Source: Moniliella sp. 'wahieum'
Lineage: Eukaryota
Length of the DNA stretch: 64,000 nt
Direction: 5' to 3'
Assembly (NCBI GenBank): GCA_003971905.1
Contig: RSEE01000063.1
Coordinates: 186,001-250,000, forward strand
The translations under genes and the position numbers were made by a program. This document shows positions 533 through 60,725 of the stretch, one piece after another; within the stretch, counting starts at the first letter, position 1; each line of letters begins with the position of its first letter. A model generated the notes under the pieces. The model saw only the letters and a program-made list of their open reading frames with translations. It did no database searches and had not been told where the DNA came from.

Positions 533-2469
533 TGACCTAGCCTGAGCTAGGAGATACGTGCCTCATGCATCGCCATATACAATAGACGCTCTTTCCTTCG
601 TTTTGTTTTCGGTTCAGCGTTGAGTTCAGCGTTCAGCGTTCAGCTTTGTTCTTGTTGTGGTATGTGGTATGTGGTTCGCATCGTTCTTCCCATCCCACTC
701 CGTTAGGGTGCGGGGGAGGGGGGGTAGAATCTCCCCACTCGTTTTTTTTGCGTGCACACTCAAGTACTCACGCGCGTTGGTCTGCTCTTCCTCGTTTTGG
801 GTCCCGCTTTGCCTCGTGAAGGTAGTTTGTCTTTCTTTGTCTCTAGGTCTTTGCATCTGTGCATCTGTGCATCTGTTTTCCGCGTGTGGGCCGCTCGGGA
901 CGCGGGGTTTCCCTGTTGCCTGCGTCTCGGTCGCCTGGACGCAAGTGAAGTCACTAGTCACTTTCCCCTGGTCCAACTTGGAGCGTCTGGGAGCGTTGGA
1001 TCGTGGGAGCGTTGGAACGTTGGTGGCGGCACTGGAAAACAGAGGTGAGGAGATGCGAAGATGTGAAGACGTGGAGATATGGAGATGTGGGGACGGGGAC
1101 GATGTGTGGATGCCAATGAGTTAGAGGTGTGCTGGGTGTTCAATATAGTCTGCACGCTCGTTACTTGCACCCATCCATTCATTTTCGGGGGCGCACAATT
1201 GGGGGCGGTGATGCAGATGCATACGAGGCCATGATCGAACCGACCCAGGATAGATATATACATGGAATAGCTGAGTGTGTAGGAGAGCAGGTGGCGTGAG
1301 AACGATGTGGTTAATGTGGTCGATGGTGACTAGTGACTTCGCTTCCTAGTATACCTGTGTACCTACCTGCCTTGTTAACCTTTTTAAGCGTGCGTTGTTT
1401 GCGGAACAATAAGCGGTATCGTTGCTGGTCGTGGCCATCATATGCACATCAGGACGTATTCGGACAACTTATGGCACGCGGGATCTCCTTGCCTTCCACA
1501 CCTTTCCGCCATCCCATCGTTGGCGTACGCACAAGTCCTACGAGCCCCGAGACGGACGCTGCTAACCCTGGGATTGAGGGGGAGCAGGAGTTTCATCCGC
1601 CACCTGTTAGTCAAGACGGTGTGGAGAACAGACGAGTACAATGAACGTGGTCAGCGGGGGAACAAAACTAAAGATGTCAATATAGCACGGTCACATGGAA
1701 GCGAGCGAGGCTGTACCGAGATCTTCATGCGGCTATAGGGGTCCCAACAAAAAGGAGGCCCCTAAGAGGTAAATGCGGATATTGCCAAGACCATTTCGAC
1801 GCTCGCACGTCCCGTTCCCCAGGCCAGCTTGAGATGGCCCGGCTGGTCGTACCCTTTTCGTCCAACCGCCTTCGCCAAACGGATGTGGTGCATCAGATGT
1901 GAGAGCTTGAGGAAATGGAACGGCTCGCATCGTTTGTTGATGAGCAGAGAGTGGTACGACCGTGTGTACCGGTACAGGATGTATGTCTTGTGTCTCGTTC
2001 CTAGGATCTACTGGCGCCTCGCTCCCTTTTCCCTGCTACTTCGACAACTTCCGTTTGCTTCGCACGCCCTATACCCTCCTCTGCACCTACGAACTGTGCA
2101 ACGATTCGCTTTTGGCGTGGCCATATTCAGTCGGAGTGGCGACAGCGCGCTTATCCAGGACGAAGTCCTCCCCCCCCCTGCCCATCTACGCAAGCAACTT
2201 GGAATACCTCCTGGCGCGCAACCCGCATCCCCCTTGCGTGTGGGTGCAAAGACAAAAACGTCCAACTAACAATGGAGAATCCAAGACCGGTCGAGTGCAT
2301 TGTCACTATATTACGTTGTCGAAACCATTGGTTTAGTTTACCACCACAATGAACTCAACGTGTTGTTTGAACCCGCAATAACATGTAACAGACAGCGGCG
2401 GAGATGGACAGAATTGGCAAACGTATTACCTTGGTTCCGGATCTGATCCGACCCCAGCTCAGTTGTGCG

Positions 2470-2604
2470 TTGCTGGCGATCCCCCAGGTTCCCTAAACGG
2501 GTTTGACGCTAACACGCAATAGACGCCGATGAGCAGGTCGGTTTAGACGCAGCGCTGCTTTGTCCCAGAGGCTTAAGCTCGGTCAATTATATGGTTACAG
2601 TGTA
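2470..2604 (-). mobile_element. Dispersed repeat copy 1 (putative MITE or DNA-transposon end)
   Basis: The reverse complement reads TACACTGTAACCATATAATTGACCGAGCTTAAG...TCTAAACCGA...CAAACCCGTTTAGGGAACCTGGGGGATCGCCAG. It aligns by eye to the copies at 45810 and 46109. Confidence 0.7.
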
Positions 2605-5277
2605 CCCTTCAATCGCGCCATTTCCTAAACTCTTCAATTTTTTGCATGCCTCGTTTCATATCTAGTTTTGCTTGAGAGCGAGCGTATAGGATGCAAGTGC
2701 TGATCAAGCATGCTAAGCAATGCATATTGAGCGTACAGCTGTCCGAGGCGCCACACCTGATGACGGGCAAGTGCAGTGGGGGCGCCGTCTCGAGAAAGGA
2801 GGCGTTGCTACATTTGCCTCGCATCAATTAACTCGGTATATTACTCTCAGATCTCAGTTATACTCAGTAAAACCTCTTTGCAGGCACTCTGAGATCTCGG
2901 TATAGTTCCAGTCACTAGAAGGCATACACTAATCACCATGTCATAATAGGCACTAGTCTCACATGTCACATCTCAGATCTCAAATTCAGATTCGATCTCA
3001 GAATCTCAGATCTCACTAGTCACGACTTACTGTCTGCGTCACATGCACGTCACAAAGGTCGCACGCACCACAAGCCTTTCTTCACCACGGTCATAGTACT
3101 CGATTTCGGAAAGTGTCGTCAGTATATCAACAGACATCTCAGTACCATCAGTACCATCAGTGCGTGCCAGTAACCAAATCAAAACAAAAAAAACACGCGA
3201 AACAGACTGTGACATGTGATAGTTGATAATGCGAACATCATGCATCACATGTCACAAGCACACAAACAAGATCTAACCAGTAACCTCTGCCCTATAGCAA
3301 GAGTGAGAGATATGTCACAAGGTTGTCACGCATCACTCACAGTATTCAGTAACTAGTAACTAGTAACTAGTCATACTCAGTCTGAGTACTCATCGATCTT
3401 CATGCATCAGTATTACTCCGTAAGTACGAAGTGTTCTGATGATCGATGAGATTTGAGCAATTTGAGCTCTGAGATCCAACAGAATCCTCTGAGATCTAAC
3501 TTGCAATCGAAGTTACTAGCGAAGAGATGCAGGAGAAATCGCCAGATAGAGTGTGTCATCGATTATTGCTAACTCCCGCGGGAGGGAAGGTGCAACAGTC
3601 GGCACTAAACGAGGGAGACCATTGCAAGGTCCTGCCGAGGCGGGGGAAAAGGCAAGATCGTTCGTGGGAGGAAACAGAAGGCATCTCAGGCAGAGAACAG
3701 AAGCAAAAGGGAAGGAAAGAGTGAGAGACACAGGATGCAGAATTGGAAATTGGAGCGAGCCGAGCTTAGTCATTCGGTGACAGAAGGGAGACTAGCAAGG
3801 AATGGTGGATGAAGAGGGGGTTTCCTTCTGCACATTGAGATATGCTGATGGTATCTCCCAACACAGCAAAACGTGGAAATTGTACCATCGGAAAGCAGTT
3901 CATGCACTTAGGCCTCTTTGCAGTAGTGGTCAATGACAAACTGAATGTCCCAAGGCATTGCCGACGCGAAACAATCGCTATGTATACATGAACGTCGAAC
4001 CGTAATTCCATGTGGACCATTTCTATGATAGTCTCGGTGTAATAACTCTTTTTTGCTCCATGATGCTGAGGGGCTTGGACATAATCGGTAGGGGAAATAC
4101 ACGATTGTTTACTGTTTACTATACATAGAGACTGATGATGCACTGACGACGGCACGACGGATCCACCTCCCAATGCTCTCCAGATGTGTTTTACGAATGC
4201 TCTGTGCAGCACCCACTAAAATTATCCGGTCTAGTATACGGTGTGCATGAGGGCGGGTTCATGAGAGACATGTTCATATTCATCTCCGCACATGGATATA
4301 TAGTTGTTGACGAAGATACCCCAATCCTAGAAACTCGATCATGATTGTACTGTCTTTCAGATCTATACACAGGATGTGCAAAGATCAAAAGAACATAAAA
4401 AGCACTTAGCATACCAACATCGATTTTGTTTATTCGACGCTCATCGTTGTCAGATCGTGACCATCGGCCAGCGGCTCAGGATCTTCTTGCTCCCGATCGA
4501 AAGGTATTTCATGAGTGGAGATGAATATGAGCTATACTAACAGCGAAGATGTGATTCAGGAAACATTTCTCCACTACATTGGAGACTACTAGACTTGTTC
4601 TTTTTCCAGTATTCAAACAACTTTTGTTATAATAACAGTCGTGGTGTAGAGTAACACCCTCGTGTTGCCCCGCGAACTGGGGTAGGAAAGATTGTAGGCG
4701 GCTGGTGGGACTTTTGACGATCTCTTGTCGTATAGTCTGTCCGAGCAGCCGATGCGTCTCTCCTTTTCTCCCTGTGTTCTACAGGGAGGTGGACGTGTCT
4801 CGTTAGCTCTTCAAGTACTATCCCTTCCAGAACTCGACGTGGGCCTCATCCGTCATCATATCTTTCATGGCATGTGGCCAACCGCTGTCCCTGGTGCATC
4901 AAAAACGTCGCTGTGGTTCCATATCGCAGAGGGTATCTTGACTGTGTGATCCTCTCTGGCACCCAGTCGGTAGACCAGGTTCGCCTCCGTTCCATCGGCG
5001 TCCACGCTGGTGCGGGTATCGTCCCAGCGTGTGGCACTGCCCCTGTACTCTGCATTCTCTCCTGTGTGCCTCACTAGCCCTGTACCTAGTCGGGCATGCT
5101 ATATAGGTGCCTCTGTACCCCGACCCAACTCTGGCCCAATCCATCACCTTCTCATCATCCTTCTCCCCACATCCGCGGGTCCTTAGGCCAACAGAGTAGT
5201 CTATATAGTAGTGACGCTAGTGCGGTCTTCTTCCCTGTTGCCCATGCGGTTGGACACGTAGGGGGAGCTGGATCGGC

Positions 5278-5812
5278 TTGAAGCCTTCAGCTTGAAGCTT
5301 GGAGCTTGAAGCTTGAAGCTTGAACCGGGTAAGAACGAGTGACTAGCAACGAAGGGTAGATATCAACTGCAAGATAATCGATTATGGAGGTGATCATCGA
5401 TCATGCATCATACACCATGCATCATGTCGATATCAAAAGCTGAGAGCGCTCAGGCTGAGCGCTGAGCGGTGGCTGATGCATGATGCATGATGATCGATGA
5501 GGCACCCAGACGCCCCAGAGACACCTGAAGCTTGAAGACACTCGCAGTACCGGTGCATCATGCATCATGCACCATGCATTCTGCTCAGCCGCTCAGTGCT
5601 CACACGCTCACGCATGTAGCACATGCCCATGCACCGCAGCACATCATGCATCAAGCTTCAAGTGTGACATGCGACACGTGGCGCATGTATGTCACGCATG
5701 TCACATGTCACATGCACTGGTCACCCAGTCCAGTCAACTAGTCAAGCTTCAAGCTTCAAGCTTCCAGCTTCTTCAAGCTTCAAGCTAGTTACTAGTTACC
5801 AGGTTACTAGTC
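5278..5812. repeat. Dense cluster of 7-bp-period TNA+palindrome arrays
   Basis: (TGAAGCT)n at ~5278-5325, (TGATGCA)n at ~5474-5495, (TCACATG)n at ~5690-5715, (TCAAGCT)n at ~5742-5790 and TTACTAG units at ~5789-5812. Confidence 0.9.
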
Positions 5813-7044
5813 AATACTTCTCACTTCCCAGATCCGTATTATGGCATAGGCGGCGTAGGCGCGTAGGATCGATCATCGAATGCAATACCGAACAGATTTC
5901 GAAGCTGCGTTGCTGGATAGAATTTGGTCTCGGCTTCAAGGTCCCATTCACATCCAAAAAGCCGCTCTCCTGCCGCACGCATACGGGCAAGGAGCACCGA
6001 GCTCCAAGCACCTGCTAGCACTACTAAGCACTGTTTCGTTCAGCGCTCAAAACACCCGCAGCGTGTTCAACTGAACGTTGAACGTTCACACGTTCACCGG
6101 ACCAACCAAAACGCAAGCAGTTGCTGGTTGTGGGGGCAGACGGGCGCGCAGCGTGTCATGCACATGCTCTGTGCTGTCTGCGGCATGCCAGGGCGTTGGT
6201 AGTCCAAGCACTCGGCTGTCCTGCATGCGGTTGCGCTACGCACAGCCGCCTGGGCGGGCATACTGCATACGTATCGCTGGCGCGCCTACTGAGACACAGT
6301 GTTTTGAGCCCCCTCGCCCCAACCGGCAACCACATTAATCAAGCTCGAATTCCAGCGCCCATCGTCACGCGTCACGCTTGTTCGCACGTTCACATGTCAC
6401 ACTTCAAGCTTCAAGGTTCAACCTCTGCAAGCCTCCGGCTGCGTCGCTGCAACGCTTGTGCTGGGTTAGTACCCGTACGTTAATTGTTCCTACGATCGAA
6501 GCGTCACGCGTCAAGCTTGAGTATAAGGAGGAGATGGTTGTGCTATTCCAGAAGAGGAGCCCGTCCGCGTCAGGGGCAGAACATAGAGGAGAGTCGGAGA
6601 AGAACAGCGTCGAAGGAGATGTGTGGTCGGCTACATGCGTGATGGCGCTGACATTGAGAGCTTGAGGAGGAACCGCCCATTCAGATATTCAGACTCCGGC
6701 TCTCAGTCGGTACCTGAGTACGGCCTGAGTATGCTGATCTGCTGACGCATGTCACTAGCACTAGTCATTTTAATCATTAGTTACTCATCGTCACTATTAC
6801 GTAGTAGCTAGTAGTTACTAGTTACTAATGACTAGGTTTACCAGTTCCTCAGGGATTGATCGATTATCGATCAAGCTGATGATTCGATGAAGCTTCAAGC
6901 TTCAAGCTTGAAGGGATGGCCGATTGTTGTTGCAAGCCAATGCGCCAATGGACACACTGGACTGCGGCGCCTGCCCCTTTTGGCGGGTGCGGCTGGTGTG
7001 CGCGTGTTCGCAGCCACGCAAGGGACAAGCTCACCTGGGTGAAA

Positions 7045-7075
7045 TCATTAATCATTAATCATTAATCATTAATCA
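7045..7075. repeat. (TCATTAA)4 heptamer array
   Basis: Read directly: tcattaatcattaatcattaatcattaatca. Confidence 0.95.
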
Positions 7076-8420
7076 CGGGCCACGGGTCACCGGCCACAGG
7101 TCACCATCCCAGTCGTCTTCCCAGATCTCAGATCGCCGAATCTCCCAGCGGATCTCTCCAGTGGGGCAGAGAGTATGCTAGGAGGGTGGAGTACGAGTCC
7201 GCACGGAGGCAGTGCCCAATGCGGGGGCTGCTGTGTGCTGCGGTGTACCTGGACATGCAATGGGACAGTTGGACCTGTGTGGCTCAGGCGCTGAGTACGT
7301 GTTGAGTACGTTGAGCGTACGTTGAACGGTGAGGCGTTGAGCTTGAGCTTGAGGACGAGGACTCGTGGTACTCGTGTATCGTACCGAGACGGAGAGTCAG
7401 TCTGAGATCTGAGTGCGTTGTCTGGGATCTGTGACATGCGATCTGAGTGCAATCATCGATCAGATCTCAGAGTCCTCAGACCCAGTCGCTGGAGCGTGGG
7501 TCAGCGCTGAGCCTCAGCCTTCAGCTGACGCTTGAAGCTCTGACGGGTGTGAAGCTGGAAGGTTCGCCAGGGTCTGCGTCGATGCAGTCTCGAATGGCGT
7601 CGTCGCAGCCACAAGGGCCTGCGGGCTGCCAGCCGTCGAGCGCTCAGGCGCCCAGGCAGTCAGGCACTCAGCCCTCCGGCTCATTCAGCCGCCAGGGGGC
7701 GCGGGGGCATTGTGCCTCGCCAGCGCACTGGACGACCAACGGGGCGCTCGCACCGCATCGCTTGGCCAGCGCTTTGCCTTCCAACGTCCAACGTCCATCG
7801 CCCATCTCAGCCCTTCTTGGCCTGCCCAGTCCCACCTCGCTCGCCTTCGCCTTCGCCCTTGGCTTTGCTTAGCCTCCTTGTGCCCCCGCTCCACCATCCT
7901 CGGCCCACCACCCGCACTGCCTCCGTCGCTGCCACCCTCCTCTTGCCTTGCCATGGTTGCCGCAGCCCACGCTACTGCCCACGGCGCTTCGCACCGCCGG
8001 CTCACGCACCCACTCGCCGCTCCCGCCACCCATCCCCGCGCGTGCGCAGCTCAACCAGCACCGCCGCCACTGTGCCCCTGCTAGCCCCGGTCCCACGTCG
8101 TGCCAGCTTCCTTCATCGGCCCAAGGCGGTTCGTGCGGTAGCGCCCTCGGGTCCTGTGCGACCTACCACGCCTCGGGCCCAATTGGCCGCGTCGCTGCAA
8201 AGTGTCAGCTTGCATTGCTTGCCCCCGCGCCGCACTTGCCACCCCCTTGGCACCTGCACCAGGTTCTTCCCCCCCCCCCCCCACTGCGCTTGCGAACCTG
8301 GGTTCATTCGCTACGCTTCCCTCGCTGGTCTATGACGGGCACGCTCGTCCCCCCCTACTGGAGGATGAGATGCCAGACCAAGCAGTTGGACTGTCCACAT
8401 TGTACCCCTCCTTCACCCCT

Positions 8421-8462
8421 TCCACTTCCACTTCCACTTCCACTTCCACTTCCACTTCCACT
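8421..8462. repeat. (TCCACT)n hexamer microsatellite inside a Ser/Thr/Pro-rich ORF (8202-8780 +)
   Basis: Tandem tccact units. Whether the ORF is coding is uncertain. Confidence 0.9.
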
Positions 8463-13300: not shown

Positions 13301-14299
13301 TGAAATGAAGCGTGAAGTGAAGCTTGGAGGGAAGCGTGAAGTGAAGCTTGGAGGGAAACGTGAAGGGAACGGCTCCGAGGGCAGAGAGAGAGAGAGACAA
13401 GGAGGACAAGGAGGATGGGATGGGGGGATGGGTTGGGTTCTGTCTGCCTTGCTGCCCGAGTCAAGTTGGTTTGGGTTGGGGTGGGGTGGGTAAGGTAAGG
13501 TGGGTAAGTCGGTGGGCAATGTTTTGTTGCGCATGTAGTACCTATCCTAGGGCGAATACGCTCACGTAGCGAGTAGCGTGGGCAGGGACAGGTTGCACGC
13601 CACTGTACCATGTACCATGTACGCTATACGCTATACCTACCGAGTGGGGGGCGGGCGGTGCGCCAGACAAGCGTCAAGTACCACATGAGGAAACGAGCGG
13701 CGGAAGATGGGAGTGGGCCAAGCAACTAATAGTTGATTGAATTGTAGTGTATGTATGGTGTCGGCTGCCAGCCACGGTGGCCACTCTTTTCGCGACTACA
13801 ATTTGGGCGATAATACTACGGTGCGACGCTACGGAGGTGCGGTGGCAGCTGCCCGATACATGGTAATCGATAGTAATCGATACACGGTAATCGATAATCC
13901 CACTGTCAGCGCGCGCAGAGGAACGATGAACGGTGGATTGGATTGACGATTGACGATTGACAAGGGGAAGAGAGGTGGCGGCACTGCGAGTGCGCGATGG
14001 ACATGGACGAGTGAGGTAGACCGATCCCGCCCGCTCCGCTCGTAGGACCCAGCGAGCCAAGCCAACTAAGAAGAGTAAGCGCGTCGTTACGTTGCTCCCA
14101 CACCAGTCTGTCTGTCGCACTGCTGAATGCTGAATGCTGAATGCTGTACTTGTTCGGACGATGGAATGGGATGGAATGGAATAGAGCATGAAGATCGTTC
14201 GATATGTTCGCTATTCAGGGCGCGGCACCGGCTCGGAGATCTGATCGCCGTGGACGACTTACACTTAGCACTTAGCTCTTAGTACTTAGTACTTAGTAC

Positions 14300-16262: not shown

Positions 16263-17252
16263 GGGGGGCAGAGGGGGGTTGGAAGCGAGGAGAGGCGGGG
16301 GTGCCGGGAGTGGAAGGGCAGGGGAAGGACAGAGACCACGCACGCGCCGACGGAGGGTTTAAGACGGGGGGCGGGTGGGCGGCATTCATTCGCATTCACA
16401 CTCACATTCACATCTCGTGCTCCCTCTCGCCGCAGGCAGGCGAGGGCTGGCTGAATGCGACCGGCTCCCGGCAGCCGCACGCACCCGACGACGCGCCTAG
16501 CAGCAGCAAGCAAAGCGCAAGCGCAGGCAAACGAGCGGGCTGCAGGGGGCGCTGTGCTCGGTGCGGCAGGGCTGGGCAAACAGCTCTTTTGCCCCTCGAC
16601 CAGCATGCCCCTCGCCCCGGCAGGCGGCCGCAGCACCCAAAGTGGGTCGTGCGCAGCGCACACAGGCGCCGTGCCAGCTGCTTTACCCCGCACCACGCAC
16701 TGCCCCTGGCGCCGCCTGGAGCGCAGCGGCAGCGCTGACCAACGCTGACCAACGGGCGCACGGGGGCGCTGTTGGCGGGGCGTCATGCATCGGGCATCTG
16801 TCCACCTGGCGCGATGCAGAATGCAGATGCGCATCCACCAGCATGCTGCATGCCTGCCTGCCGCCCGTCCTATTCAGTGCGCCCTACGCCGCGCCTCGGT
16901 TGCTGCGTTCAACTGAGCGTTAACGTTAACCCCGCAGCACCCACAGCACGCAGACACGCAGACGAGCGTCGTGTGCTGCACGGGTGCTTGTGCTTGTGCT
17001 TGTGCTTGTGCTTGCGCTCCTCTTTCCCCGCCTTGGCTGCGCGGCCCCTACGATAACCCCACTGCAAGCCCCACCCTTGCGCGGCTGGGTGCGGCCGTCA
17101 CGTGCCTCTCACACGTCTGCCCCCGCCGCCTTTCCCTCTTCGAGCTTAGATGCTATACGCTGCTACGCTGCAGGCGGCCCGTCTCAGATCTCAGACCCAT
17201 CCATCATACAAGTACAGCACCCCCCGTGCATCCGGCCTCCGTGCCTCCGCAC

Positions 17253-22734: not shown

Positions 22735-22850
22735 ATGCCAGATGCCAGATGTCAATGCCTGCATCCCGATTTCAAATTTAACATTCACCGTTTCAACGAT
22801 CCCCTGGACGTTCAATGTTCAATGTTCAATTGAACGTTCAAGCTTCAAGA
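22735..22850. promoter_or_regulatory. Heptamer array in the divergent promoter between PRE4 and the DUF2470-like gene
   Basis: ttcaatgttcaatgttcaattgaacgttcaagcttcaaga lies between the two divergent start codons. The regulatory role is inferred. Confidence 0.45.
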
Positions 22851-23017
22851 TACCACACAGACACCCCTCGGGCTGGCCACGTGGTGCGGCTGGTCCCTGG
22901 CTTACCGGTCACTCAATTTGGCAGGAGCAGCGGCAACGGCGAGCCAATCCCGTCGTCTAGCTTGGCGCGGTCCGTTCCCGGCGGTCGATACCTACCCAAC
23001 CATCTTCTCCCTCCCAC

Positions 23018-31746: not shown

Positions 31747-31817
31747 TAAAAAGTGAACTACGAGCGGGTAAGGTCGTCAGGAAGGATACAGGAAATAAGG
31801 GGGGGGACAAGATAGGT

Positions 31818-34683: not shown

Positions 34684-34712
34684 GTTACGCGTTACGCGTT
34701 ACGCGTTACGCG
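34684..34712. repeat. (TTACGCG)4 heptamer array; the complementary form (TAACGCG)n occurs at ~33408-33437
   Basis: Read directly: gttacgcgttacgcgttacgcgttacgcgc. Confidence 0.95.
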
Positions 34713-34924
34713 CGCTTCAGCAGTCTTCGGAGCCCGCGGAGCCTCGGGGAACTAGTGACACTAGTGAGGCCGGAAGTGCACCGCGATTGGCGAAACCAGT
34801 CACCATCGCAACACCCCTCTAGCTCGGGGCTGTTGAACAGCGTGGAAAATGCGGTGAACACCATCGGTTTGGGGTCGAGCTCTGTCCACAGTCCAGTACA
34901 TTTCCTTCTCGAGCTTCGTGGGAC

Positions 34925-35510: not shown

Positions 35511-35520
35511 CGCCAGACCA

Positions 35521-41325: not shown

Positions 41326-41376
<51 letters not shown>

Positions 41377-41554: not shown

Positions 41555-42351
41555 GGTGGTGTGTGTGGGTGTGGGTGTGGGTGTGGGTGGGAGGCAGAGA
41601 AGCAGAGGAAGCACCCTGGGCGTCTGGGCCGCCTGTCTGCCCGACGCGACGCCAGTGCCTGAGACCACCACAGCAGCCTGCAGGCACCGCAGCACACTGC
41701 CGCCCCGCCTGGCACAGCAACACACGCCCGCCCAGCCAGCCAGTGTCCCGCCGCGGCTGCCGCTGCGCTGAGCGCCGACGCGTGATGCTGGCGTGCTGCT
41801 GGCCAGCCGCCTTCCCCTGGCTCAGCGCCATGCCGCTGCTGCGCCGATCGGCAGCCCGGCGCCCGGCCGCCCCAGCAGAAGGCGAGCCCGTGGGGAGGGG
41901 GCGGGGCAGCAGTAGGGTGGACGCAGCGCCTCTGGGCTACTGCGGGGGCCGCCATTCCGCATGGAAGACTGGGCCAGTGCGGGCGGGTGGGCGCTGGCTG
42001 AGCACCCAGAGGCAGTGCGCACGGCGGCAGTGTCCCATGTCAGTCATGTCAGTACTCACTAACTCGCACTGAGACTCGGTCGACTCTCTGCACCAGCAGG
42101 TGGCAGTGTGGCCTGGAGCGGCCACCGCCGGCCACCGCACAGCTCGTCCGCGGCTGTTCCGCGCTCCTGCTCTCTGCCACACCCGGCGCATCGGGCCAGG
42201 GTGCCTTGCATCCACCATGCATCATGCATCATGTATCATGCATCATCGATCATCTGTCGTCAATCACACACCATGCATGAACAGTGCGCCCCCACCGGTA
42301 TCATGCAACCATGTATCATCGGATGACAAATTACCTCTGCATCCCATCAGC

Positions 42352-42437
42352 TCCTCGATGGTCAACGGCTATGATGTGACGCTCTCACTGCCCCAGCAGG
42401 AACCGTCAAGACCCGGGTTCGACTCCCGGTCGGGGAA
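42352..42437 (+). tRNA. tRNA-Glu(CTC) with 15-nt intron
   Basis: Acceptor stem TCCTCGA/TCGGGGA. Anticodon stem TGACG/CGTCA with loop CT-CTC-A-[ctgccccagcaggaa]-C. T arm CCGGG-TTCGACT-CCCGG. A T-tract (Pol III terminator) follows immediately. Confidence 0.93.
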
Positions 42438-43131
42438 CTTTTTGCGTATTCAACGCACTATCTTCTCCCCTTTGTCCCTCAGGCTTCAGGCGCACCCATC
42501 CATATCTCCTCCATTCAGCCCAGCGCGCGGTCCCAGTTGGCCTTCATCCGCATCCGGCACAGTCGATGAGCTCCTAGGAGGAGATACCCAGTCCTGCCAC
42601 CCTGGCCTCCCCATTTATTTCCCACCGCGAGCCAAGGGCAAGGGGGGCGGATTACGTACGCGACGCCCGTGCACTGCGCCCCTGGGTTGGATGGGTGTGT
42701 GGAGCACCCCCTCCACCTCCACCGCCTCCACCACCGCCTCCGCCACCCCTCCAGCCCCCTTGCTCCCGCCACGGGGGTTTGCTGTGTGGTATTATACCCC
42801 CCTCCACCGCCCCCCCCGCCACCCCGTCTGTGTTTCTCCACGCGCCGCTCTCTCTCCCTCTCACCACCCGACCCTCTGGGACCTGGCCTGTCCTGGCCCC
42901 TCAAATACCCCACCGTCACCTGCTGCGTGATGTCTACCCCCCCGCCTCCCCTCTGAGAATTGATCCTACACCGTGCGGCCATCCCGGACATCTGCAACCT
43001 CCCTTCCTCTCCCCTTGTCGCTGTGCTCTCGATACCAACCCCCGCTCCTCTTCTTCCCTCCGACGCACACGAACCCTCCCTCTGACAGTTACCCCCCTGT
43101 GACGGTGACGAGTGACACGTGACGACGCACC

Positions 43132-45093: not shown

Positions 45094-45607
45094 TCTCTGA
45101 TCTGTGTATACATCAAATTTAGTTGCGGCCGTCCTGTCGCTTGGCATGGTGCATTGATTGGCTCCAGGTGTGGCCGGTTACGCAGTACAGTCCCACCTAT
45201 AGACCTAGACCCACTGAGAGTAATGCGCCCATTGTGTTCCTTTCCTTTTTGGGTTCTTGGCACGTTTTGGCATGGGAGACGGGTGCAGAAGAGAAGAAAT
45301 AGGCTCAACTACAGTCATGCATCATGCAGTCCAGTCACAAGCCACTGCAGTAGGGAATGTGCATGGTGCTATTCTATTGTATAGTTCCTCGCTGTTGATG
45401 GCCGTGCAATCGCGTACTTACATGGACATTCTCTCTTGTAGTGTTTTGAGTTGGCTCGCTACCTTCCAACCCAACCACCGTCCAAATAATAGAAGAAGTG
45501 TAGAGCGTGGTGTGGTGAAGAGGAGGCGCTCGCCAAACACCGAGATGACACTCCGCCCTTGGTCGTCCCGCTTCACGCTTCTTCATCAGATCCTCCCAGC
45601 CGGAGAA

Positions 45608-45672
45608 GCGGCCTCGGCGGAGCGGCCTCGGCGGAGCGGCCTCGGCGGAGCGGCCTCGGCGTAGCGGCCGAG
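45608..45672. repeat. GC-rich 14-bp tandem repeat (GCGGCCTCGGCGGA) x~4
   Basis: Read directly. Confidence 0.92.
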
Positions 45673-45809
45673 TGGCGGATTGTCGTAGGTTATGCTTGTG
45701 GATGCGAGGAGGGAGGGAAGAGGGCGGTGTGACATGTGGCATGCGACATGTGAACGGGTTAGCGATGAACTTTGCATCCTCCATCTTCCGTCCTATAAAG
45801 CCTAAGAAC

Positions 45810-45956
45810 TATACTGTAACCACAAATCCTTGATACAGAGATTAGGGATGAGACAACGAAACTACGATGGATCTAAACCGAGCCCCGTTCATCCGGCGTG
45901 TGCTGCCTGTTGCTTGGCGCCAAACCCGTTTAAGGAACAAGGGGAATCGCCAGGAA
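45810..45956 (+). mobile_element. Dispersed repeat copy 2
   Basis: TATACTGTAACCA...ATGAGACAACGAAAC...TCTAAACCGA...CAAACCCGTTTAAGGAACAAGGGGAATCGCCAGGAA. Confidence 0.7.
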
Positions 45957-46108
45957 ATCAGGACCCTCTGATGCCCGTCATCCGTTCCCATACCCGCCGA
46001 GGAAGCGCGTGTGGATACGGATGAACGTGGCAGAGATCCGAGCGAGGAACCATCTTCATTGAGACTCATCAGTACTCAGTGTAATACTCAGTATACTAAT
46101 AGTCAGTA

Positions 46109-46233
46109 TATACTGTAACCATATCATTGACAGAGCTTAGATATGAGACAACGAAACGCTTTGCCTAACCTGACCTTCATCTGGCGTTTGCTGCTTGTTG
46201 CTTGGCAGCGCCGTCTAAGGAACCAGGAAATCG
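46109..46233 (+). mobile_element. Dispersed repeat copy 3
   Basis: TATACTGTAACCATATCATTGACAGAGCTTAG...ATGAGACAACGAAAC...TGTTGCTTGGC...CCGTCTAAGGAACCAGGAAATCG. Confidence 0.7.
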
Positions 46234-47318
46234 ATGTAAGGGCTAGTAAGTCTGAAGTACTAATTCGTTCCAGTGCCGTACTATTCTGGATTCTGAGACT
46301 ATAGTAAAGCTTCAAGTGACTATTCGTGACTAGTGACTAGTGACTTGAGAGGCCTGTGAGAGAGAAGGGCACTCGGGTCGCTAGGTCAGTGACGTATACC
46401 CCCGCGCCGCATTTGCCCGCATCTTTCCACTGATTGCATCATATGTATACCAAACGGATACCAAAAAGGCAGTTGGGCTCGGGCACTCGTCGGACCGAGC
46501 CCCGAGATGAAGTGGGGGAAAAGGGAGTGGCACTCGTCGCGCTGACAAGGCAGTGAGGGGGGGGGGATTAACTTAACTAACCGTCGACCGTGACTATCTT
46601 CTCTTTTTACAGGTGTGGCTGAAATGCACAACGGCTACTCGGTACTCCGTCTGAGTACTCAGTATTCCTCACAGAATGCAGTACCCCAAATTCATCTGGG
46701 AGGGAAGGGTTTCTGGTTTGCAGAATAGGATTTGTGTCAGATGTCAGAGCTGCTCCTTTTCCCTGCAACTGAGGACTAGTGACTAGTGACTGTACTGAAT
46801 CCACATGCAATCGATGGGTGCTTGATACTTTGATCGCCCAGACGCCCAAGCATGCTGGGGGGCGGCAGATGAGAGCAGGTACGATGGAGGGCGCTTTGGG
46901 CAGATGCTATCTTTGTAGCACACTACGCCACGGCACAACACCCATACAACGACAAAAGAGAGAGCACACAGATTGTGGGTGCAGAGTGTATTGCTGGGGG
47001 CCACAGCCCCCCCCATCCTACGCTTTTTGTTTCTCTCCTCGGCTCGGCTGGCGGCGATGCAGGGAGTGGGCCGGGGGTAACGAAGAGAACGTGCTAATTA
47101 ATAAGTGCTGCCGAGGTTAAGTGGCGGAGGGCGGAAGAGGCGGAGCGGAAGCGCCGAGGGAGAGCGGAGGTGCGTGCAAGGGCGTCTCTTGGGCAAGCGC
47201 TACCGGCTACCTCAGAGTGGGCTGTGGCACCGCGGCGCACAACACAGGAGTATAGCCATGCCTCGGCCGAGGGCAGGGGGGAGGTGTGTGAGCTGGAAGC
47301 GGGGCGGCGCCATCAAAG

Positions 47319-47357
47319 TTAAACGTTAAACGTTAAACGTTAAACGTGTTAAACGTT
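47319..47357. repeat. (TTAAACG)n heptamer array
   Basis: ttaaacgttaaacgttaaacgttaaacgtgttaaacgtta. Confidence 0.95.
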
Positions 47358-48553
47358 ACTACAAGCGCTGCTGCGGTGCAGGCGGGGCAGTGGCGCCACT
47401 GCGCCGGCGCCTTGGCTGCGTCGGCGTGCGTTGGGCGTTTGACCAGGGAGGGTAGCGACCAGCGCACCTGCCAGGGCCATGCATGGGCCTGCACCACAGG
47501 ACTGCCAGAACGCATAAGGCTACAAGGCCAACCACGCCTGCCTCGGTCGACCCAGAAGACACGGTGTACATCTCCAGCGCATTACCCGATGCAACAAGCG
47601 GCACAAACCCAGCCAAGACCCGCAAACCGAACCAACCCCCCCCCCACAGAGACAGACCATTACAGGACGCAGCACAGACACAACGACTGGGCTGCCGGCT
47701 GCCTGCAGTGGCGCCCGCGTGCCATGGTTGCTTGTGCCATTCTCCAGGCGAAGGCAGTAATGAAGCACTCTGGGTGTGGCCACTCCGTTGACGCAGGAGG
47801 TGCGCTGCACAAAGGCACCGCTGTTGCCCTTGCATGCGCATGTGCCCCCTGCATTCTATGCACGCCGGCCGCAGAGACACACAGCCATCGCAATAACGCG
47901 ATAATGACATGGGCCAGTTGCACGGTGCAGACCTGCACCCTACCTCTCTTCGTCGCGGCACCCGCCCTGCCCGCACCTGCCGCATCAGGGCATCCGTGCA
48001 TCAGACAGCCTACGCCGCATGCGCTATACGACCTTAGGCCTTATAGGCAGTATGTTGAGCACCACATGGCACCATTGGCCGCGGGGAAGACAACCGCAGT
48101 GGCAATGGCAGAGACAGACTGCCATGCACGCCACGCTATCCCCGGCACCTCCGCACCCATATTATATGCTCATCCATCGCTCGTCTGTGTTCAGTATCAG
48201 TAGTTGTGCATGGCGGTTATGCATGATGGAAATGTCCACGCCCTGTCCTCAGCGCCCTCAGCCTTCGCCCCTACACTCTCCACCCCCACCCCCACATCCG
48301 CTCGGGCGGCTCTCATCAATCATCACTCCTATCACTCATCCCTTCTTCCTCCTCCCTCGCTCGCGTCGCCTCCTTCTCAAAGCACCCCTCACCCCCCGGC
48401 TCTCGCTAGCCTGTTCCCTTCTTCCCTCCACCTCCCTCTTTTCCCTCTCCATCCACATCCAGCATCTGCTTCCTACCCGCACCCGCACTCCCGTCGCTTT
48501 CCATCCTTCTATCCACCCCCCACGCAGTGCACCCCCCTCTCCCTCATCGCACC

Positions 48554-49180
48554 ATGGTTGTCCACTCCCCTCCGCCGCCGCCGCACAGCCATCCCTGCCT
48601 ATCTGTTGCCGAGGACGAAACCTGCAGCACCGACACACTCTCTGTCTCTACGCCCCAGACCGAAGATAATAGGCCGCAACTAAGCCAACTGCCGAACCCT
48701 CCCCGCAAGCCAACGCTAGCCAACGTATTTGGTCTTCCTGCTCGCCCGCGTACACGGCCGGCATGTGCCATTGATGAGTTGCAAGCGCTATTGGATCGTT
48801 TAGAGGGTGTTCATCCTCCCCCTCCTCCCCCATCGCCACCGGCACTGCCCCTGCCCCTGCCTCCCTCTCCTCCAGCACAAGACGGCACGCTAGGAAGGCC
48901 GCTTGTCCTTGCTCCGTCGGTAGGCTCGCCCAGTCCCCTCCCCCCCCCGGACGGAGCAGGACGGCGCGGTTCGGCCGCGTACCGATTGGCACTGTTATGT
49001 GCGGCTGGCCCACCTCTGAGTTCGCCTCCTGCCATTCCGCTTCCTCTGCAGCCCGGGCAAGAAGTGCTGTCGAGCGCATGGGGGTGCGATGAGTCGGACG
49101 GACCGCAAGATAAGACGCGTTCCATTCTCCAATGGCGCCAAGAGGTGTTTTTGAGCCACGGACACGAATGGGAGCGCTGA
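48554..49180 (+). CDS. Hypothetical proline-rich protein
   Basis: Intact ORF MVVHSPPPPP...RSILQWRQEVFLSHGHEWER*. It has a CT-rich 5' leader, a good ACCATGG start context and an AT-rich 3' region. Confidence 0.55.
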   Translation: MVVHSPPPPPHSHPCLSVAEDETCSTDTLSVSTPQTEDNRPQLSQLPNPPRKPTLANVFGLPARPRTRPACAIDELQALLDRLEGVHPPPPPPSPPALPLPLPPSPPAQDGTLGRPLVLAPSVGSPSPLPPPDGAGRRGSAAYRLALLCAAGPPLSSPPAIPLPLQPGQEVLSSAWGCDESDGPQDKTRSILQWRQEVFLSHGHEWER

Positions 49181-50501
49181 GTGTCCGGATTTTCCTGGAG
49201 AAAGTGGAGGAGAGGCGGTGTTGGTGTATTTGTATATGACTCTCTTTCCCCTTTCCCTTGATCCTACATGTACATGTACATTTGCATGTACATCTCTCCT
49301 GTGGATATTATGTACGCACGGTTTTCTCGGTTTCGTCAATTGTACCCTCATCGGCATCGCTTTTGTTCCTGTTATCATTTCCATCTCTCGTCTCCATATC
49401 ATCCCCCCGCACCATCTACATCCTCTCCCACATTTCTTATCTCCATCCTCTCCATTATCTCCATCCCGATCGTTGTTCTCTGGCTATACAAAAAGGGAGA
49501 TCCGAATAACCAACACCACCATATATATTTGCTTCGCACAACAGGGATAAGCAGACACAGTGTAACGGATTTCATTCATATGCCTATACTCTCTCTTTTA
49601 CCTTTTCTCGGACGTATAGTTTCGTAGTGTAATACAGAGACCTGTTCCCCCAACCACCCATCCATATATTACTTGCCAATGGCCATTTGGGGGGAGACGA
49701 CCCCTTAGCCTCTTTCTCAGCCCACCGCAGTATTAGGAATGACCAATGACATCCATCCTACCACACCAACGACCGCTATAACGACGACTCCTCGTGCGGG
49801 GGGTGGTGCGATCCCAGTCTGTCGCTGTGCATTGTCGGTACGGCAGCTGGAAAAGGGCGATGGGCAAAACCGTCCTATGTATACATGTCAGTATAATCGA
49901 TGGAAAGGATGGAAAACATGCTGTGCAGTATTTAATCCGTCCGCATCCGGGTTTCCCCTGTGGCTGCAAAAACCAGAACACCAAAACCATAGGGGGGGGG
50001 GGGTTAAGCAGGAGGTGAGGCAGTGCAGGGGAGATGGAGGAGTGGTGCGCGCAAAAGGCATTCCGTGGCACTCGCCCTTGTTGTTGCTGGCTGGCAGGTG
50101 GCGGGACCAGTGGCTAGGGTTAGTCGGGCGGGCGCCGCCCAGCCGACGGGGAGCCGAAAAAGAAGCAGGAAATGGAACGCAGATGGACAAGTGGCAGTGC
50201 TTACGTGATGGTGTGGGGGAGGGCGAGTGGCGCCGTGCGGGGGAGGACAGCGGGGAGGCATGTGGCATGTGACATGTGACATGTGACATGTGATGCTGAG
50301 GGAGACGCGTGGGTTATGAGGTGGAAGGTGATGGGGTGTGATGGCGGGGGGATGTGATGGGTGCGACGAATGCGATGGCTGTGACACCTGGGATGATGCG
50401 ATGGATGCGCTCGTGGGCGTCGGCAGCGCGTCGACGGCTGTGCTCAACACCTCTCCTCCTGCTCCTGCTCTTGTCTGCGCCTCCACCGCCGAGCAGCGCC
50501 C

Positions 50502-53500: not shown

Positions 53501-55507
53501 CACTTACTGCGTGCCGTACCTGTCTTTCAAGTGGTCACGGCCAGTGGGATCAAAGACCGTTTCCTATTCGTTTTTACCGACTTGGTCATTGTGGCCAAAC
53601 CTGTCGCCGCTCCCGAGGGAGGGGGGATGATGCTTGGTATGGCCGATCTCAGTTGGCTGTTCAGTGTCAAGGCGATTTTAGAGCTGCGCACGCTCCGCCT
53701 ATCCATCCCGAAGGACTATGCGTCGGAACCGGTGCGTCCTCACCCGTTGATGAAGTCCCTCGTGGCGCGTTTCCCGCGCGACGCAGAGCGCGCAATCGAG
53801 GATGTGATTGCTCGCTCAGGCATGCCAGCTACGGACGAGACCAAAGCGCAACTGCTATCCCAAACGCCCGACTTGGACAAAAACGTATTGACAGCCTACC
53901 TGTGCCATCCGCGCAATGCCAGGGTGATGGACGCGTACATTGCCTGCCAACGCCTGGTTGGGGTATCGGTTGAGTCGGCATTACGAGCGCTACTGATGGG
54001 ACTACGTTTTCCTGCGCGGTACGCCGATGCAGAGCGGCTATTGCGTGCGTTTGTCACGCGGTGGACCGAAGCGAATGCGGCGCTGATCAAACCGGGCTTT
54101 ACACGCGCGATCGCGGGTGCATTGGTGATGGACATGTTCCGGCTGAACGATGGGCTACATGCGTCCGACCCATTGGCGCTGGTGCCGCGGTACATCTACC
54201 CACCCTCCTATGGTCCACCTTGGGACCGCACCACCAAGCCCGACACGTTTGTTGCCCATGTCCGCGCGCACGACCCGGGACTGATCTTATCGGACCAAAC
54301 CCTGATGCGGATCTACGCCTCGATCCGTGCTGAACCGCTCGCCGTCGCTCTGGCACCGGACGAACCACCCCCGTTGCCCATCTACCTCACTTCGCCCTTA
54401 CCCACCAAGATGATTTACGGCCAAGCCAGTGCGCTCGTGACGGTGACCCTACCTCGTGCCGATCGCGAATTTGCTCTGCGACTGTACGGAGCGGACATTA
54501 CCTTTGACCCGCCCGTCTTGACATTTGGTCAGGCGCGTTCGCGCAGCTTTAGTATGACGTCGCGGGTGCTGGGGCCGAAACAGGTGGTGTTTGTCCGGGC
54601 CGGACGAAGGAGTCGGTACTACGGCGAAACGTTGACGGTGGACGCGCAGCAGGGGGCTATACCACTGCCGCGCAGCGCGACCGTGGTGGTAGAACGCGCG
54701 TTTATGCAACATACGTTCCTTTTGACTAGCCCTTGGGACCACGGTGCTACTCCCAGTCCTACCCCCAGCCCTGGTTTGGCCCCTGGTTCTGGCGCTGTCC
54801 CTGGCTCTGGCTCTGGCTCTGGCTCTGGTTCTGGTCCTGGCCCTAGTTCTGGCTCTGGCCCAAGTTCCAGCACGGCGACCGGACGAAAGTTCTTGTTCAG
54901 CTTGGAGGACGGAGAAAAGCGGTCATTTGTGACCGACGCCTTGGCACAGCGGTTGGATGCACTTCGTCGTACGCCCATCACAACTGTACAAAAGTACCTG
55001 GAGACGGTTGGGGTAGAAGCGCTGCGGGAGGCGTTGATTGATCCTATGGACGAATCCAGTTCTCTCCAACGCAGTGTCAGTGCCAGTGCGCTTGCTCCTG
55101 GACCTGGATCGCGTCGAGTAGGGACGGGAGGAGCAGGAGGAGCAGGAACAGGAGTGACGGCAACGGTATCAGACGTGCCCGTTTCCGCTCCTGCTGTTCC
55201 CCCTCCATCCCTTGGGAGGGGGGGCACGCTTCGTCACGCCTTGGGCGGTTTGACGCGCAAACTAGACCGGGTGGCTAGCTCGGCAGGTACGAGTCATCGA
55301 CCCTCTGTGGCGGGTACGGCGCCGAGCGAGGGACGGGAGGGGCCAAGTGCAAGTACGAGTGCCAATGTGAGTACTGCTGCAAGTGCAAGTGTGCCTCCAA
55401 ATGGCAACACGGTGCCAGGCGCACCGATCACGCTTACGGGCGCAGAGATTGTGGCCATGTGCGAACACAATTCCTTGTTGGCCCCCCTTTGGGCACAACG
55501 GTCGTGA
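50502..55507 (+). CDS. Large protein: disordered N-terminus, PH-like domain and degenerate Sec7 domain
   Basis: KDRFLFVFTDLVIVAKP (PH-like). LDKNVLTAYL...VMDAYI...GVSVESALRALLMGLRFP...ERLLRAFVTRW...MFRLNDGLH...LMRIYASIRAEPL follows the Sec7 pattern. The upstream ORFs are joined by inferred frameshifts. Confidence 0.78.
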
Positions 55508-55740
55508 AGCTTGATGCAAGGTGAGCCTCATCAGCTGGTGCAGTCATGAGAGCTGTTGGCCGCTCTCCCTGAGGGTTAGAGCCCGCTGAACCCCGAACGT
55601 CCAACTTCGATCTTTGGATCCTTAATCATTCTGATCAAACAGTTTCTAGGTACAATAACTGCCCTTCCCCCCCTCGTTTAGCATCATGTCTGCCGAGCCC
55701 GTTCTTGAAGCATACAAGACGTAATTGGTGCAACTTCTTA

Positions 55741-55845
55741 TTTTGTTCTGTTCTGTTCTGTTTTGTCTGTTGATTAGGGCCGTTTTGTTCTGTTCTGCTT
55801 TGGTTTTTGGCGTGGCTTGGTTTGGTTTGGTTTGGTTTGGTTTGT
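55741..55845. repeat. (TTCTG)n and (TTTGG)n pentamer microsatellites
   Basis: Read directly. Confidence 0.9.
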
Positions 55846-56915
55846 GGTTGGGCTGCAGTTCATGTGGTGGTAAAAGTCGTGACAGAAACCGTATCGCATG
55901 GCCATACTGCGGAGTTAAAAGTGGCATGCGGGGCATATTTATCTTTCTTCCTCCTTTTCCGTCTGTCCGTCCTCCTCGGCCGCCCCTCCCCCCCGTTCTC
56001 TCAATCCACTGTGATGGTTTTGTTGAACAAATGCATAGGGCATGTAGGTGGACGAGGGCTATATTGTTCCTGTATACCATAGCAGAAAGAGCCGATACAA
56101 GCTTGAAGCTTGATTGAAGCTATCCTGGCACAGGCATCAACTCTTACGATCCCTCTGATCCTTGTTTTGTCTTCCCTCCGACCGTCGCCATGATACACTG
56201 CAACTCCACGCGATGCTCGTCCATTTTCTCTTCGAGATAGGTTTGCTCTCATCCCTTTTATTGGGTCCGAAAACTGTGTGAGGAGAGGACGATTCTGAAT
56301 CGATGGATTGGGAGTCTCTCAGTTTGTTTCGTATCCTTTTGAGCTACCATCTGCATCGGGACCGGCGACTGCAACGGCCTAGTACATCGGTTGGAGAACC
56401 ACTAGCATACGGGGGGGCAGGAAGCGGATCTGAAATGAATGTTGAACGTTGAACGCTGATCGATGATCGATGATGCTAGTTTTGAAATGTATAGCTGCTA
56501 CTCCAGCGGGTAGGCACAGGCAGGCACAACCGTCTGCACTAGTAAGTGTTACAGAAACGACACAAAAGGTTTTGTCGGCAGCCTGGGGAGGCTGTGCCGC
56601 GTGTTCCGGGTTGCAAAGGAGAGGCATTTCACCCGCAAGACTAGGTTCATAACATCATGTCCGGTACAAGAACAGTGGTATGGACCCTCCGAGACGGCGC
56701 TACAGAGGGGCTAGATCTGAGAAAGGAGGCGACACCCGCCTCTTAGAAGATGCAACCGCTGGAGCAGCCGTCAGCCTCGAGGGGCCCATACACAATGCAA
56801 TATGGGGGCTCGGGAACAACTCGAATATTGTGAACACCCAAAGCAGAGAACAATGTAGTTGTTCTCCACCATCCGCAATCCCTAGCTCCTTGCTTCTTTT
56901 GCCCTCTTCCTCGTC

Positions 56916-59900: not shown

Positions 59901-59940
59901 TGGCTACAAACCGAGCGACTTGGGTGTTGAGTGTTTTTGA
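56916..59940 (+). CDS. Hypothetical Ser/Pro-rich disordered protein (frameshifted)
   Basis: Consecutive plus-strand ORFs (57433-58575, 58221-58616, 58613-60115, 59656-59940) share an S/P-rich composition. No domain recognised. Confidence 0.6.
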
Positions 59941-60725
59941 CTTTTGTGATATCAATGGATCCGATTCTTCCAAGTATGAAGAGTCTTCTTCTCGGTTTTT
60001 ATCTCAGCACGTTGGGGGGGACTTTGTGTTTTCTCCTTTCATCAGTGGCGATGATGCACTGATGTGTGTGTTACCAAAATACTACACCTCACAACAAGAG
60101 GGGATATTGGTGTAGCCGCAGGCATTATTCCTGTAGAAGTATATACTAGTGTTAGACGTAGCGTTCCCCTGCCCCAGCCTTCTTAAGTCTGCCAATGAAA
60201 TGGAAGTTACTAGTGCGGGTGGTGGCCATATATCATTATTGGCACGATGGGGACTTTTGTGGTGTTTGGCGAGGTGGACCGCTAATGCCCGTGTCGGGAT
60301 GCCTGGCCTGCAATCCATGCGCGCTCCAAGTCGATGGCCTGTGCCCGTTTGGGCTGGGGGCGGGGGGGATATGCAGCCGCTACGTGCTGAGGCTGAGTCG
60401 GGTGGTAAAAACGAGAACGCGAGGACGTGGACAGCTCGAAGGGCCTGAACAATTTAATGGAAAGGAAGCGGAGTTGCTAATTGGCTGACATGTGAGACAT
60501 GTGACACTTGTGACACTCAATCACCTGCGATGACGTTTAGCGGAGTGGGCAGTGTGCGCAGCAGCGGGGGGGGGCGCACTGGGCGGAGCTTGCTGGAGAG
60601 TGAAGCTTGACGCTCTGCGCGCTCCGCCGGCCCTCGCCACCTCCACCGTCGGCCATGGCCCTCTGACCCACCCGTCCATCTTCGTTCTTACCGCCCCCTC
60701 CCCCACTTAAGTACCGTCCGCAGCC

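Follow-up and report, generated by a model that had tools for sequence, protein, structure and literature searches.

The hAT, Transib and RAG systems and the MULE Muta1 seal flanking DNA into hairpins, which are then opened by host enzymes (PMC5499845). Ac/Ds footprints in Candida albicans, yeast and plants show P-nucleotides and microhomology (PMC5873905), and target-site duplications of 7 bp have been reported for hAT7 in rust fungi and for Kyakuja (KDZ) in Agaricomycotina, the latter from five Agaricomycete orders (PMC12730594). The CMC/CMCT group (EnSpm/CACTA, CNIRT6, CNEST, ESTA and Plavaka) is related to Transib and RAG and is also present in basidiomycetes (PMC12810828, PMC12730594). 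CMCT elements make duplications of 2 to 5 bp (PMC12730594), with 3 bp for CNIRT6 and TA for CNEST (PMC12810828). Here, we describe short tandem arrays of period 7 in a 64,000-nt stretch of the genome of Moniliella sp. 'wahieum' (contig RSEE01000063.1, positions 186,001 to 250,000), which as a whole we call the window. In these arrays, the triplet T-N-A (TNA, where N is any base) alternates with a variable palindromic 4-mer. We conclude that the arrays are probably the accumulated excision footprints, or scars, of a cut-and-paste DDE transposon that would duplicate 7 bp, target NN-TNA-NN and seal its flanks into hairpins.

The scars resemble P-nucleotide footprints and RAG coding joints in their duplicated target remnants, the inverted copy of one end and the microhomology at the joint (PMC5499845). 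They differ in having one dominant product (net +7, with two inverted bases), an NN-TNA-NN target and a density that forms arrays. With Ac/Ds footprints they share short palindromic insertions of the kind left by opened hairpins, a small number of favored products and joining guided by microhomology; however, Ac/Ds palindromes center on the complement of the element-adjacent base (PMC5873905), whereas the palindrome at the scar joint is even (xy|y'x'), and the scars do not have the geometry of hAT (Ac/Ds-type) footprints. hAT7 and Kyakuja, both basidiomycete DNA transposons, can be likened to the putative agent by the 7-bp length of their duplications, but the sections describing them mention no footprints (PMC12730594), and the window yielded no transposase of this kind. 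AGCT heptamer repeats of bacteria and phages have the same period and the same word, but show no TNA-specific enrichment of other cores and, unlike the scars, no boundary peak at 2 nt. We found no description of arrays such as those reported here in the full-text literature searched, which left most subscription journals out of reach.

A period-7 rule with a self-complementary core

Expected counts for the pattern T.A-N4-T.A were obtained from 30 local dinucleotide shuffles of the window. The pattern occurred 236 times, compared with 123.4 ± 10.7 in the shuffles, and among spacers of 0 to 12 nt an excess was limited to N4 (period 7) and to period 14, a multiple of it (162 versus 130). Triples of the form T.A-N4-T.A-N4-T.A numbered 63, with 5.6 expected. 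The core was a perfect palindrome at 113 of the 236 sites, against 6.9 to approximately 8 in the shuffles, and 14 of the 16 palindromic cores were in use, ATAT and TATA being absent. Imperfect cores with one complementary pair (52 versus about 46 in shuffles) or with none (71 versus about 71) lay close to background, and the palindrome excess is confined almost wholly to the perfect class. The rule that the original prediction had read from the letters, T-N-A plus a palindromic 4-mer at period 7, was thus borne out, with an excess over other spacings and a palindrome bias that survives control for composition; the examples that were checked lie at, or at most 2 nt from, the positions first given for them.

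Exact period-7 runs gave a consistent picture: in 35 of 65 the unit was a palindromic hexamer with one additional base (14.2 expected), and the outer pair of the hexamer was A..T in 32 of these 35. Symmetric tandem units of periods 3 to 6 and 8 to 14 were not enriched in the window, period 8 included, so that the canonical 8-bp target-site duplication of hAT elements has no counterpart here. The central N was identical on both sides in 89 of the 113 ten-mers made up of TNA, palindrome and TNA, and in 44 of the 60 isolated ones, which indicates that TNA is a direct copy. The central base was C in 47, G in 37, A in 16 and T in 13 ten-mers, a strand-symmetric distribution.

The scars were absent from genes, in keeping with the earlier remark that no array lies in a conserved exon. 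With approximate limits, gene blocks make up 28.8 kb of the window; they contained 0 of the 113 palindromic ten-mers (3.0 expected by chance), all of which fell in the remaining 35.2 kb, grouped into 77 loci. This corresponds to about 2 scar loci per kb of noncoding DNA. The loci were also strongly clustered, with 32 of 76 gaps shorter than 100 bp, whereas 2,000 random placements on TNA sites averaged 14 such gaps and never exceeded 27. Several genes in the window look frameshifted, suggesting an error-prone assembly, and a sequencing or consensus artefact might be suspected as the source of the arrays. However, the absence of ten-mers from genes, the strand symmetry of the central base, the presence of decayed copies and the recurrence of the same rule in independent contigs of other organisms make this explanation hardly credible. 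The pattern is a real and sharply defined feature of the window.

The boundaries of the arrays reveal the form of the individual event. When the period-7 match was followed past the outer TNA in 83 arrays, its length among non-zero values peaked at exactly 2 nt (25 arrays on the left and 22 on the right). A match of 1 nt was seen on the left in 13 arrays and on the right in 12, and one of 3 nt in 7 and 6, respectively. The 2-nt extension was mostly one-sided: among 91 chains, extensions to the left and right of (2,0), (0,2) and (2,2) were found in 12, 13 and 3 cases, respectively, and the core copied a flank in 65. One-sided events of the form TNAxy|y'x'|TNAxy numbered 43 with the same N, versus 0.1 by chance, and 7 with the complementary N, versus 0.35. 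The event can be written as L-abTNAxy-R giving L-abTNAxy|y'x'-TNAxy-R, or its mirror image, with a net gain of 7 bp. As far as the sequence itself goes, the unit is a 7-bp duplication of NN-TNA-NN in which an inverted copy of the other end takes the place of two bases in one copy, yielding abTNAxy|y'x'-TNAxy or its mirror with TNA fixed, and only in noncoding DNA. Thus, a two-base inverted copy of one flank end stands at the joint, as P-nucleotides do, and TNAxy is repeated exactly with target remnants on both sides, as in a direct duplication. The fold-back mutation that had been put forward as one origin of the pattern can therefore be sharpened to a fixed event, a 7-bp duplication centered on TNA together with two inverted bases.

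A motif-free grid, in which a duplicated word was sought together with an inverted copy of its end and no TNA was imposed, likewise peaked at net +7, and the duplicated word was led by TNA (T at its first position in 48 of 76 cases and A at its third in 53). Other numbers of inverted bases were rarer, with 5 events at +6 (one base; 0.75 expected), 2 at +8 (three bases; 0 expected) and 1 to 2 at +9 (four bases; 0.05 expected), and variable opening of a hairpin would produce such variants. The +8 events are TGACT|AGT|TGACT at 5732..5744 and TGAGT|ACT|TGAGT at 758..770, and a +9 event is TCACT|AGTG|TCACT at 34754..34767, all on the minus strand. Among the one-sided scars are TGACT|AG|TGACT, whose left flank is unlike the core (1327..1338), and TAATC|GA|TAATC (13888..13899), both on the plus strand. 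A symmetric A/T bias was also visible at positions 5 to 6 from N; we set it aside because neighboring units confound it.

Plain duplications without inverted bases occur as well. Of ten nonpalindromic tandem heptamer runs containing TNA, nine hold two full NN-TNA-NN copies, and three duplications start and end in the exact NN-TNA-NN phase, all on the plus strand. The first, GT-TCA-GC in three copies (624..644), belongs to the feature at 614-644, where the TNA register is kept but the core is not palindromic. The second is GT-TCA-AT in three copies, followed by a mixed array TGA ACGT TCA AGCT TCA AG (22810..22852), which is present at 22831 as had been described. The third, TG-TCA-GA in two copies (46735..46748), is what a target-site duplication would look like if retained.

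If a site were hit twice, a mixed-core triple would result, with its cores copying the flanks on the outside. Eight such triples were found; 25 of their 32 predicted flank bases were present (about 8 by chance), and all eight had at least one exact flank. At 3236..3256 (plus strand), CA TCA TGCA TCA CATG TCA CA matches at both flanks, and its two cores copy them, which is what two hits on an ancestral CA-TCA-CA would leave. A second site, CA TCA TGCA TCA AGCT TCA AG at 5642..5662 (plus strand), also matches at both flanks and would derive from CA-TCA-AG.

Probable excision footprints and competing explanations

The scars are best read, by analogy, as working like P-nucleotide footprints with a variant geometry. 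Insertion would duplicate abTNAxy, and excision would turn each flank end into a hairpin without an unpaired central base, in the manner of RAG, Transib and MULE elements. A host nuclease would open one hairpin off-center, leaving the overhang y'x'T(N')A. The self-complementarity of TNA around N would let this overhang pair in register with the TNA in the other copy, and end joining would then swap ab for y'x' and keep the +7. The mismatch at N would usually be repaired to the original base and sometimes to its complement. Pairing between overhang and TNA would thus account for a fixed gain of 7, two replaced bases and an occasional complementary N. Because each scar holds two fresh TNA targets, further hits would build same-core or mixed-core arrays, some of which slippage may lengthen, and frameshifting scars would be purged from genes. 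A palindromic target could pair over its whole length, which would give an excess of fully symmetric scars; exact duplications of palindromic targets are AGTCACT (949..962) and TCTCAGA (17182..17195), each in two copies, and at 6388..6415 the differing palindromic heptamers TGTCACA, CTTCAAG, CTTCAAG and then GTTCAAC form an in-register chain, all three sites being on the plus strand. We infer that hairpinning of the flanks by a transposase yields this footprint by analogy with the described systems, and we infer the responsible agent from the scars, because neither a donor element nor a transposase was found in the window. A 4-bp duplication with three inverted bases would give the same product, but from an asymmetric target.

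Three models were simulated on shuffled window DNA, with parameters set by hand. The observed boundary counts at 0 to 4 nt were 72/31/47/13/19. Only the model of duplication plus hairpin had a peak at 2 (65-72/20/57-61/15/8), whereas slippage gave a flat distribution (41/26/23/22/39) without mixed triples and a binding-site model gave 136/35/9/4/4.

These results bear on an origin in replication, by which the growing strand would switch after TNAxy, copy backward and return 7 nt off through the symmetry of TNA, slippage then expanding the product. Such template switching would yield inverted as well as direct copies, and it is in line with the abundance of other short tandem repeats in the genome, with homogeneous arrays of three to four units and with the hairpin folding of five of six arrays tested (-2.5 to -12.1 kcal/mol). 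It does not, however, single out TNA, since ANT, CNG and GNC are equally symmetric and unenriched, and other periods show no symmetric excess. Slippage microsatellites have phase-free boundaries and one unit per array, whereas the arrays in the window show a boundary peak at 2 nt and eight mixed triples. The simulation agrees with the earlier view that slippage alone is insufficient, and we consider template switching with slippage very unlikely.

The same boundary counts argue against selected binding sites, whether read by cooperative or dimeric proteins that recognize TNA-N4-TNA or retained by selection as a regulatory subset of scars. The noncoding position of the loci and their clustering in long intergenic regions would suit such sites, as would the apparently weaker decay of cores than of flanks, and the binding-site simulation gave 10 mixed triples, close to the 8 observed. 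It also produced 78 chains without a matching flank, whereas there were 26. Binding gives no reason for palindromy site by site over 14 different cores, for an identical N in 89 of 113 ten-mers or for one-sided copying of the flank; arrays of transcription factor sites have fixed bases and flanks independent of the core, whereas here the core is free but self-complementary and copies the flank in 65 of 91 chains. In addition, at 32 of the 52 flanks of the 26 unmatched chains one of the two bases was still matched (about 21 by chance), as decayed scars would be, so that most of these chains look like aged scars. We therefore give selected binding sites very little credence. Of the two origins offered by the original prediction, a recurrent fold-back mutation was right in kind, whereas a cooperative protein reading TNA half-sites finds no support.

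Several results weigh against excision footprints. Ac/Ds footprints are heterogeneous, with 28 types among 128 (PMC5873905), and Muta1 makes 8- to 9-bp duplications and is excised mostly precisely (PMC5499845), whereas the scars in the window are stereotyped. About 2 scar loci per kb of noncoding DNA would imply very many transposition cycles. The hairpin model gave too few chains without a matching flank (14 ± 4 versus 26) and too few 4-nt extensions (8 versus 19). With 5% decay it gave too many one-pair cores (about 75 versus 52) and too few mixed triples (2 to 4 versus 8), and it needed an added bias toward palindromic targets to fit the 14 two-sided matches. These 14 matches of at least 2 nt on both sides are close to the roughly 17 expected from the margins, that is, near independence, and both flanks were matched in just two of the eight mixed-core triples. 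Among nonpalindromic runs, TNA was present in 10 of 30, no excess over the 9.7 expected from the letters. No donor came to light either: when the window was scanned for elements with inverted ends and a 7-bp TNA duplication, only array-made or weak chance pairs came up, no transposase family was recognized by Pfam among 114 of 163 long open reading frames or among 109 of 110 short ones from noncoding stretches, and tblastn with 120 Tnp2 (PF02992) proteins found no match in the window. The cores also seem less decayed than the flank dinucleotides they copy (one-pair cores, 52 versus a background of about 46; chains without an exact flank, 26 versus about 7 by chance). The hairpin model does not explain this slower aging; palindrome-correcting repair or selection could lie behind the better-kept cores.

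If the scars are excision footprints, the donor may more likely be a CMCT-type or a KDZ element, because the hAT offset geometry misfits. hAT duplications are usually 8 bp, which leaves room for hAT7 with its 7 bp. CMC/CMCT duplications of 2 to 5 bp differ from the 7 bp centered on TNA that the scars suggest, and a 7-bp duplication in this group would be new. No superfamily is assigned, because neither the hAT geometry nor the CMCT duplication length fits. A hAT-type offset of one base was rejected, as it predicts a complementary N, which was found in 7 one-sided events versus 43 with the same N. PIF/Harbinger-like elements make a 3-bp TNA duplication; an origin of this kind, with the element ends as the core, was also rejected, given that the core copies a flank in 65 of 91 chains and that 14 cores occur.

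A scan for Kyakuja-type elements (7-bp duplication, CA..TG ends, no inverted repeats) returned 18 pairs, compared with 5.8 in shuffled DNA; several were inflated by arrays, many spanned genes and none was supported. An Rfam scan of the window gave no match. The window also contains a dispersed repeat of about 135 bp in three copies that are 72 to 76% alike, at 2470-2604 (minus strand), 45810-45956 (plus) and 46109-46227 (plus). All three begin sharply at TA followed by YACTGTAACC, a start resembling a CACTG-type (CMC) end with a TA flank or the start of a solo long terminal repeat. As a donor this repeat was rejected, since it starts at a TA flank and a partner end was not found.

The rule in other fungi

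When metagenomes were scanned with a 19-nt array motif, at least 121 loci matched, 80 of them with long flanks. The motif match itself was masked before counting, 52 short loci were excluded, and all figures for these contigs refer to the matches listed. Of 16 registers, T.A ranked highest in the 46 low-coding loci that measured 1.5 kb or more (272 kb in all), with 37 events versus 2.6 expected. In 23 gene-dense, prokaryote-like loci, which served as a separate control, it reached 9 versus 2.4, and four other registers were higher; these loci do not obey the rule. Because the low-coding group is mixed and some events share an AGCT core, we recounted on distinct non-AGCT sites. The 11 loci classed as eukaryote-type by Pfam hits or a shared repeat (124.6 kb) held 13 such sites versus 1.15 expected, contributed by six of the 11 loci, compared with 6 versus 1.1 for the next register; the figure of 13 versus 1.15 is not a blind estimate, because three of the loci were first examined for their high rank. 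Free left boundaries of arrays in the low-coding loci peaked at 2 nt (13, versus 3 at 1 nt and 2 at 3 nt), a peak that was not seen in the gene-dense loci.

As judged from these contigs, the rule is present in a second basidiomycete subphylum, with two contigs being Agaricomycete-like. A host gene in one of them (L068) is closest among named proteins to Thelephora (65%). The other (L072) carries at 18329-20017 a reading frame for a Tnp2 (PF02992)/EnSpm-type transposase that runs past the end of the locus and has named relatives in Agaricomycetes and rust fungi; because Tnp2 genes are common in Agaricomycetes, it lends weak support only. Other loci showed features of their own. The fungus-like L001 (1-8591) is almost without coding sequence and holds 11 palindromic ten-mers with six non-AGCT cores, versus 2.1 expected. 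In L068, an inverted-repeat element of about 850 bp (346-1195) contains an internal TATTCAA array; no 7-bp duplication was seen around it, or around the inverted-repeat element of L032, in the flanks shown. L013 (124-641) and L015 (4329-4879) share a 550-bp repeat ending in CTAG and then T, which we take to be like a Helitron 3' end.

The spread of the rule matters for an origin without any mobile element, in which a domesticated transposase or host enzyme would make a 7-nt staggered cut at NN-TNA-NN and the ends would be filled and hairpinned, giving the same +7 product. The geometry would be identical, no donor was found in 64 kb despite 77 loci, the loci are strongly clustered, and the same TNA rule in two basidiomycete subphyla is easier to reconcile with a conserved host activity. 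We know of no enzyme that cuts in this way. The density of scars, however, differs about tenfold between the genomes (13 non-AGCT sites in 124.6 kb versus 63 in the 64-kb window), as bursts of transposition would give, and we judge this origin to be unlikely. A wider possibility, which we regard as speculative and rather unlikely, is a previously undescribed +7 mutational process throughout basidiomycetes, in which a RAG-like domesticated transposase, or a CMCT lineage with 7-bp duplications and activity high enough to make it a standing mutator, would cut TNA sites in open regulatory DNA again and again and leave palindromic heptamer arrays, some of them being kept by selection, as the better preservation of cores than of flanks might suggest.

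Putative scar sites, gene setting and significance

The remaining scars are spread over the intergenic DNA of the window, and no strand is assigned to the clusters. Two hot spots stand out. The first (2379..3565) holds 12 scar loci, about 9 per kb, including mixed-core arrays at 2959-2982, 3006-3022 and 3238-3254 and a TAACTAG array at 3348-3371. The second (5307..7510) holds 25 loci, about 10 per kb, with the cores AGCT, TGCA, CATG, CTAG, ACGT, CGCG, TCGA, TTAA, GATC and GCGC. These hot spots, with a density of about 10 loci per kb, are separated by a scar-free block of 1.6 kb (3600-5200), possibly a later insertion or an unrecognized gene; its best pair of ends is weak (3843-5371, with a 5-bp repeat and 11 of 14 positions inverted).

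Further along, AC-TTA-GC in two copies followed by a TTAGTAC array (14262..14299, plus strand) lies directly beyond the 3' end of the fumarate reductase gene. A cluster of eight loci with TAACGCG and TTACGCG arrays (33406..34712) lies upstream of the alcohol dehydrogenase gene. Two loci with a mixed TCATGCA/TCATCGA array (42049..42252) precede the tRNA-Glu gene by about 100 bp. Eleven loci occupy a long intergenic stretch (45315..50293) with arrays of TGACTAG (46326 and 46774), TAAACGT (47318) and TGACATG (50266). Three more (55505..56474) comprise TGAAGCT at 55505 and 56099 and a mixed TGAACGT/TGATCGA array at 56436-56474. Two single ten-mers with CATG and AGCT cores lie at 60486..60610, and a scar TCAGG|CC|TCAGG at 62278..62291 (plus strand) lies beyond the span originally predicted.

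Pfam families identified in the window are fumarate reductase, PAK kinase, a proteasome subunit, Rpc34, Atg27, aldehyde dehydrogenase, alcohol dehydrogenase, Gti1/Pac2, Sec7, a PQ-loop protein and isocitrate dehydrogenase. Among named proteins, one from Tilletiaria anomala comes closest to the fumarate reductase (69% identity), with two other proteins higher at 87% and 76%. As the best hit of a single gene, it would make the host a probable Exobasidiomycete. The genes for fumarate reductase (14303-16150), PAK kinase (17207-19600), aldehyde dehydrogenase (29741-31400) and alcohol dehydrogenase (31821-32990) are split over several frames, for which introns may account in some cases and assembly indel errors in others. 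The tRNA-Glu(CTC) gene (42352-42438), about 100 bp past the mixed scar array, lies upstream of the Gti1/Pac2 gene. Ordinary tandem repeats are also present, among them a 14-bp unit in at least four copies (45601-45670) and (TCG)16 at 41326-41375.

Work on transposon footprints generally proceeds by single reporter loci, and the footprints vary too much to be spotted across a genome, whereas a stereotyped scar can be counted from sequence. To the rule itself, the present analysis adds cross-taxon evidence and a comparison of models. Because the rule occurs in two subphyla, it can be tested at once in public genomes and population data. If the scars are excision footprints, the window would serve as a fossil record, with tens of cycles of insertion and excision in its 64 kb, from which hairpin chemistry and target length could be read for a group of elements whose mechanism is unprobed in fungi. 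They would also provide a concrete origin for heptamer tandem repeats and palindromes in intergenic DNA. Should a standing +7 mutator instead be at work, it would constitute a new route for the birth of tandem repeats and dyad-symmetric binding sites.

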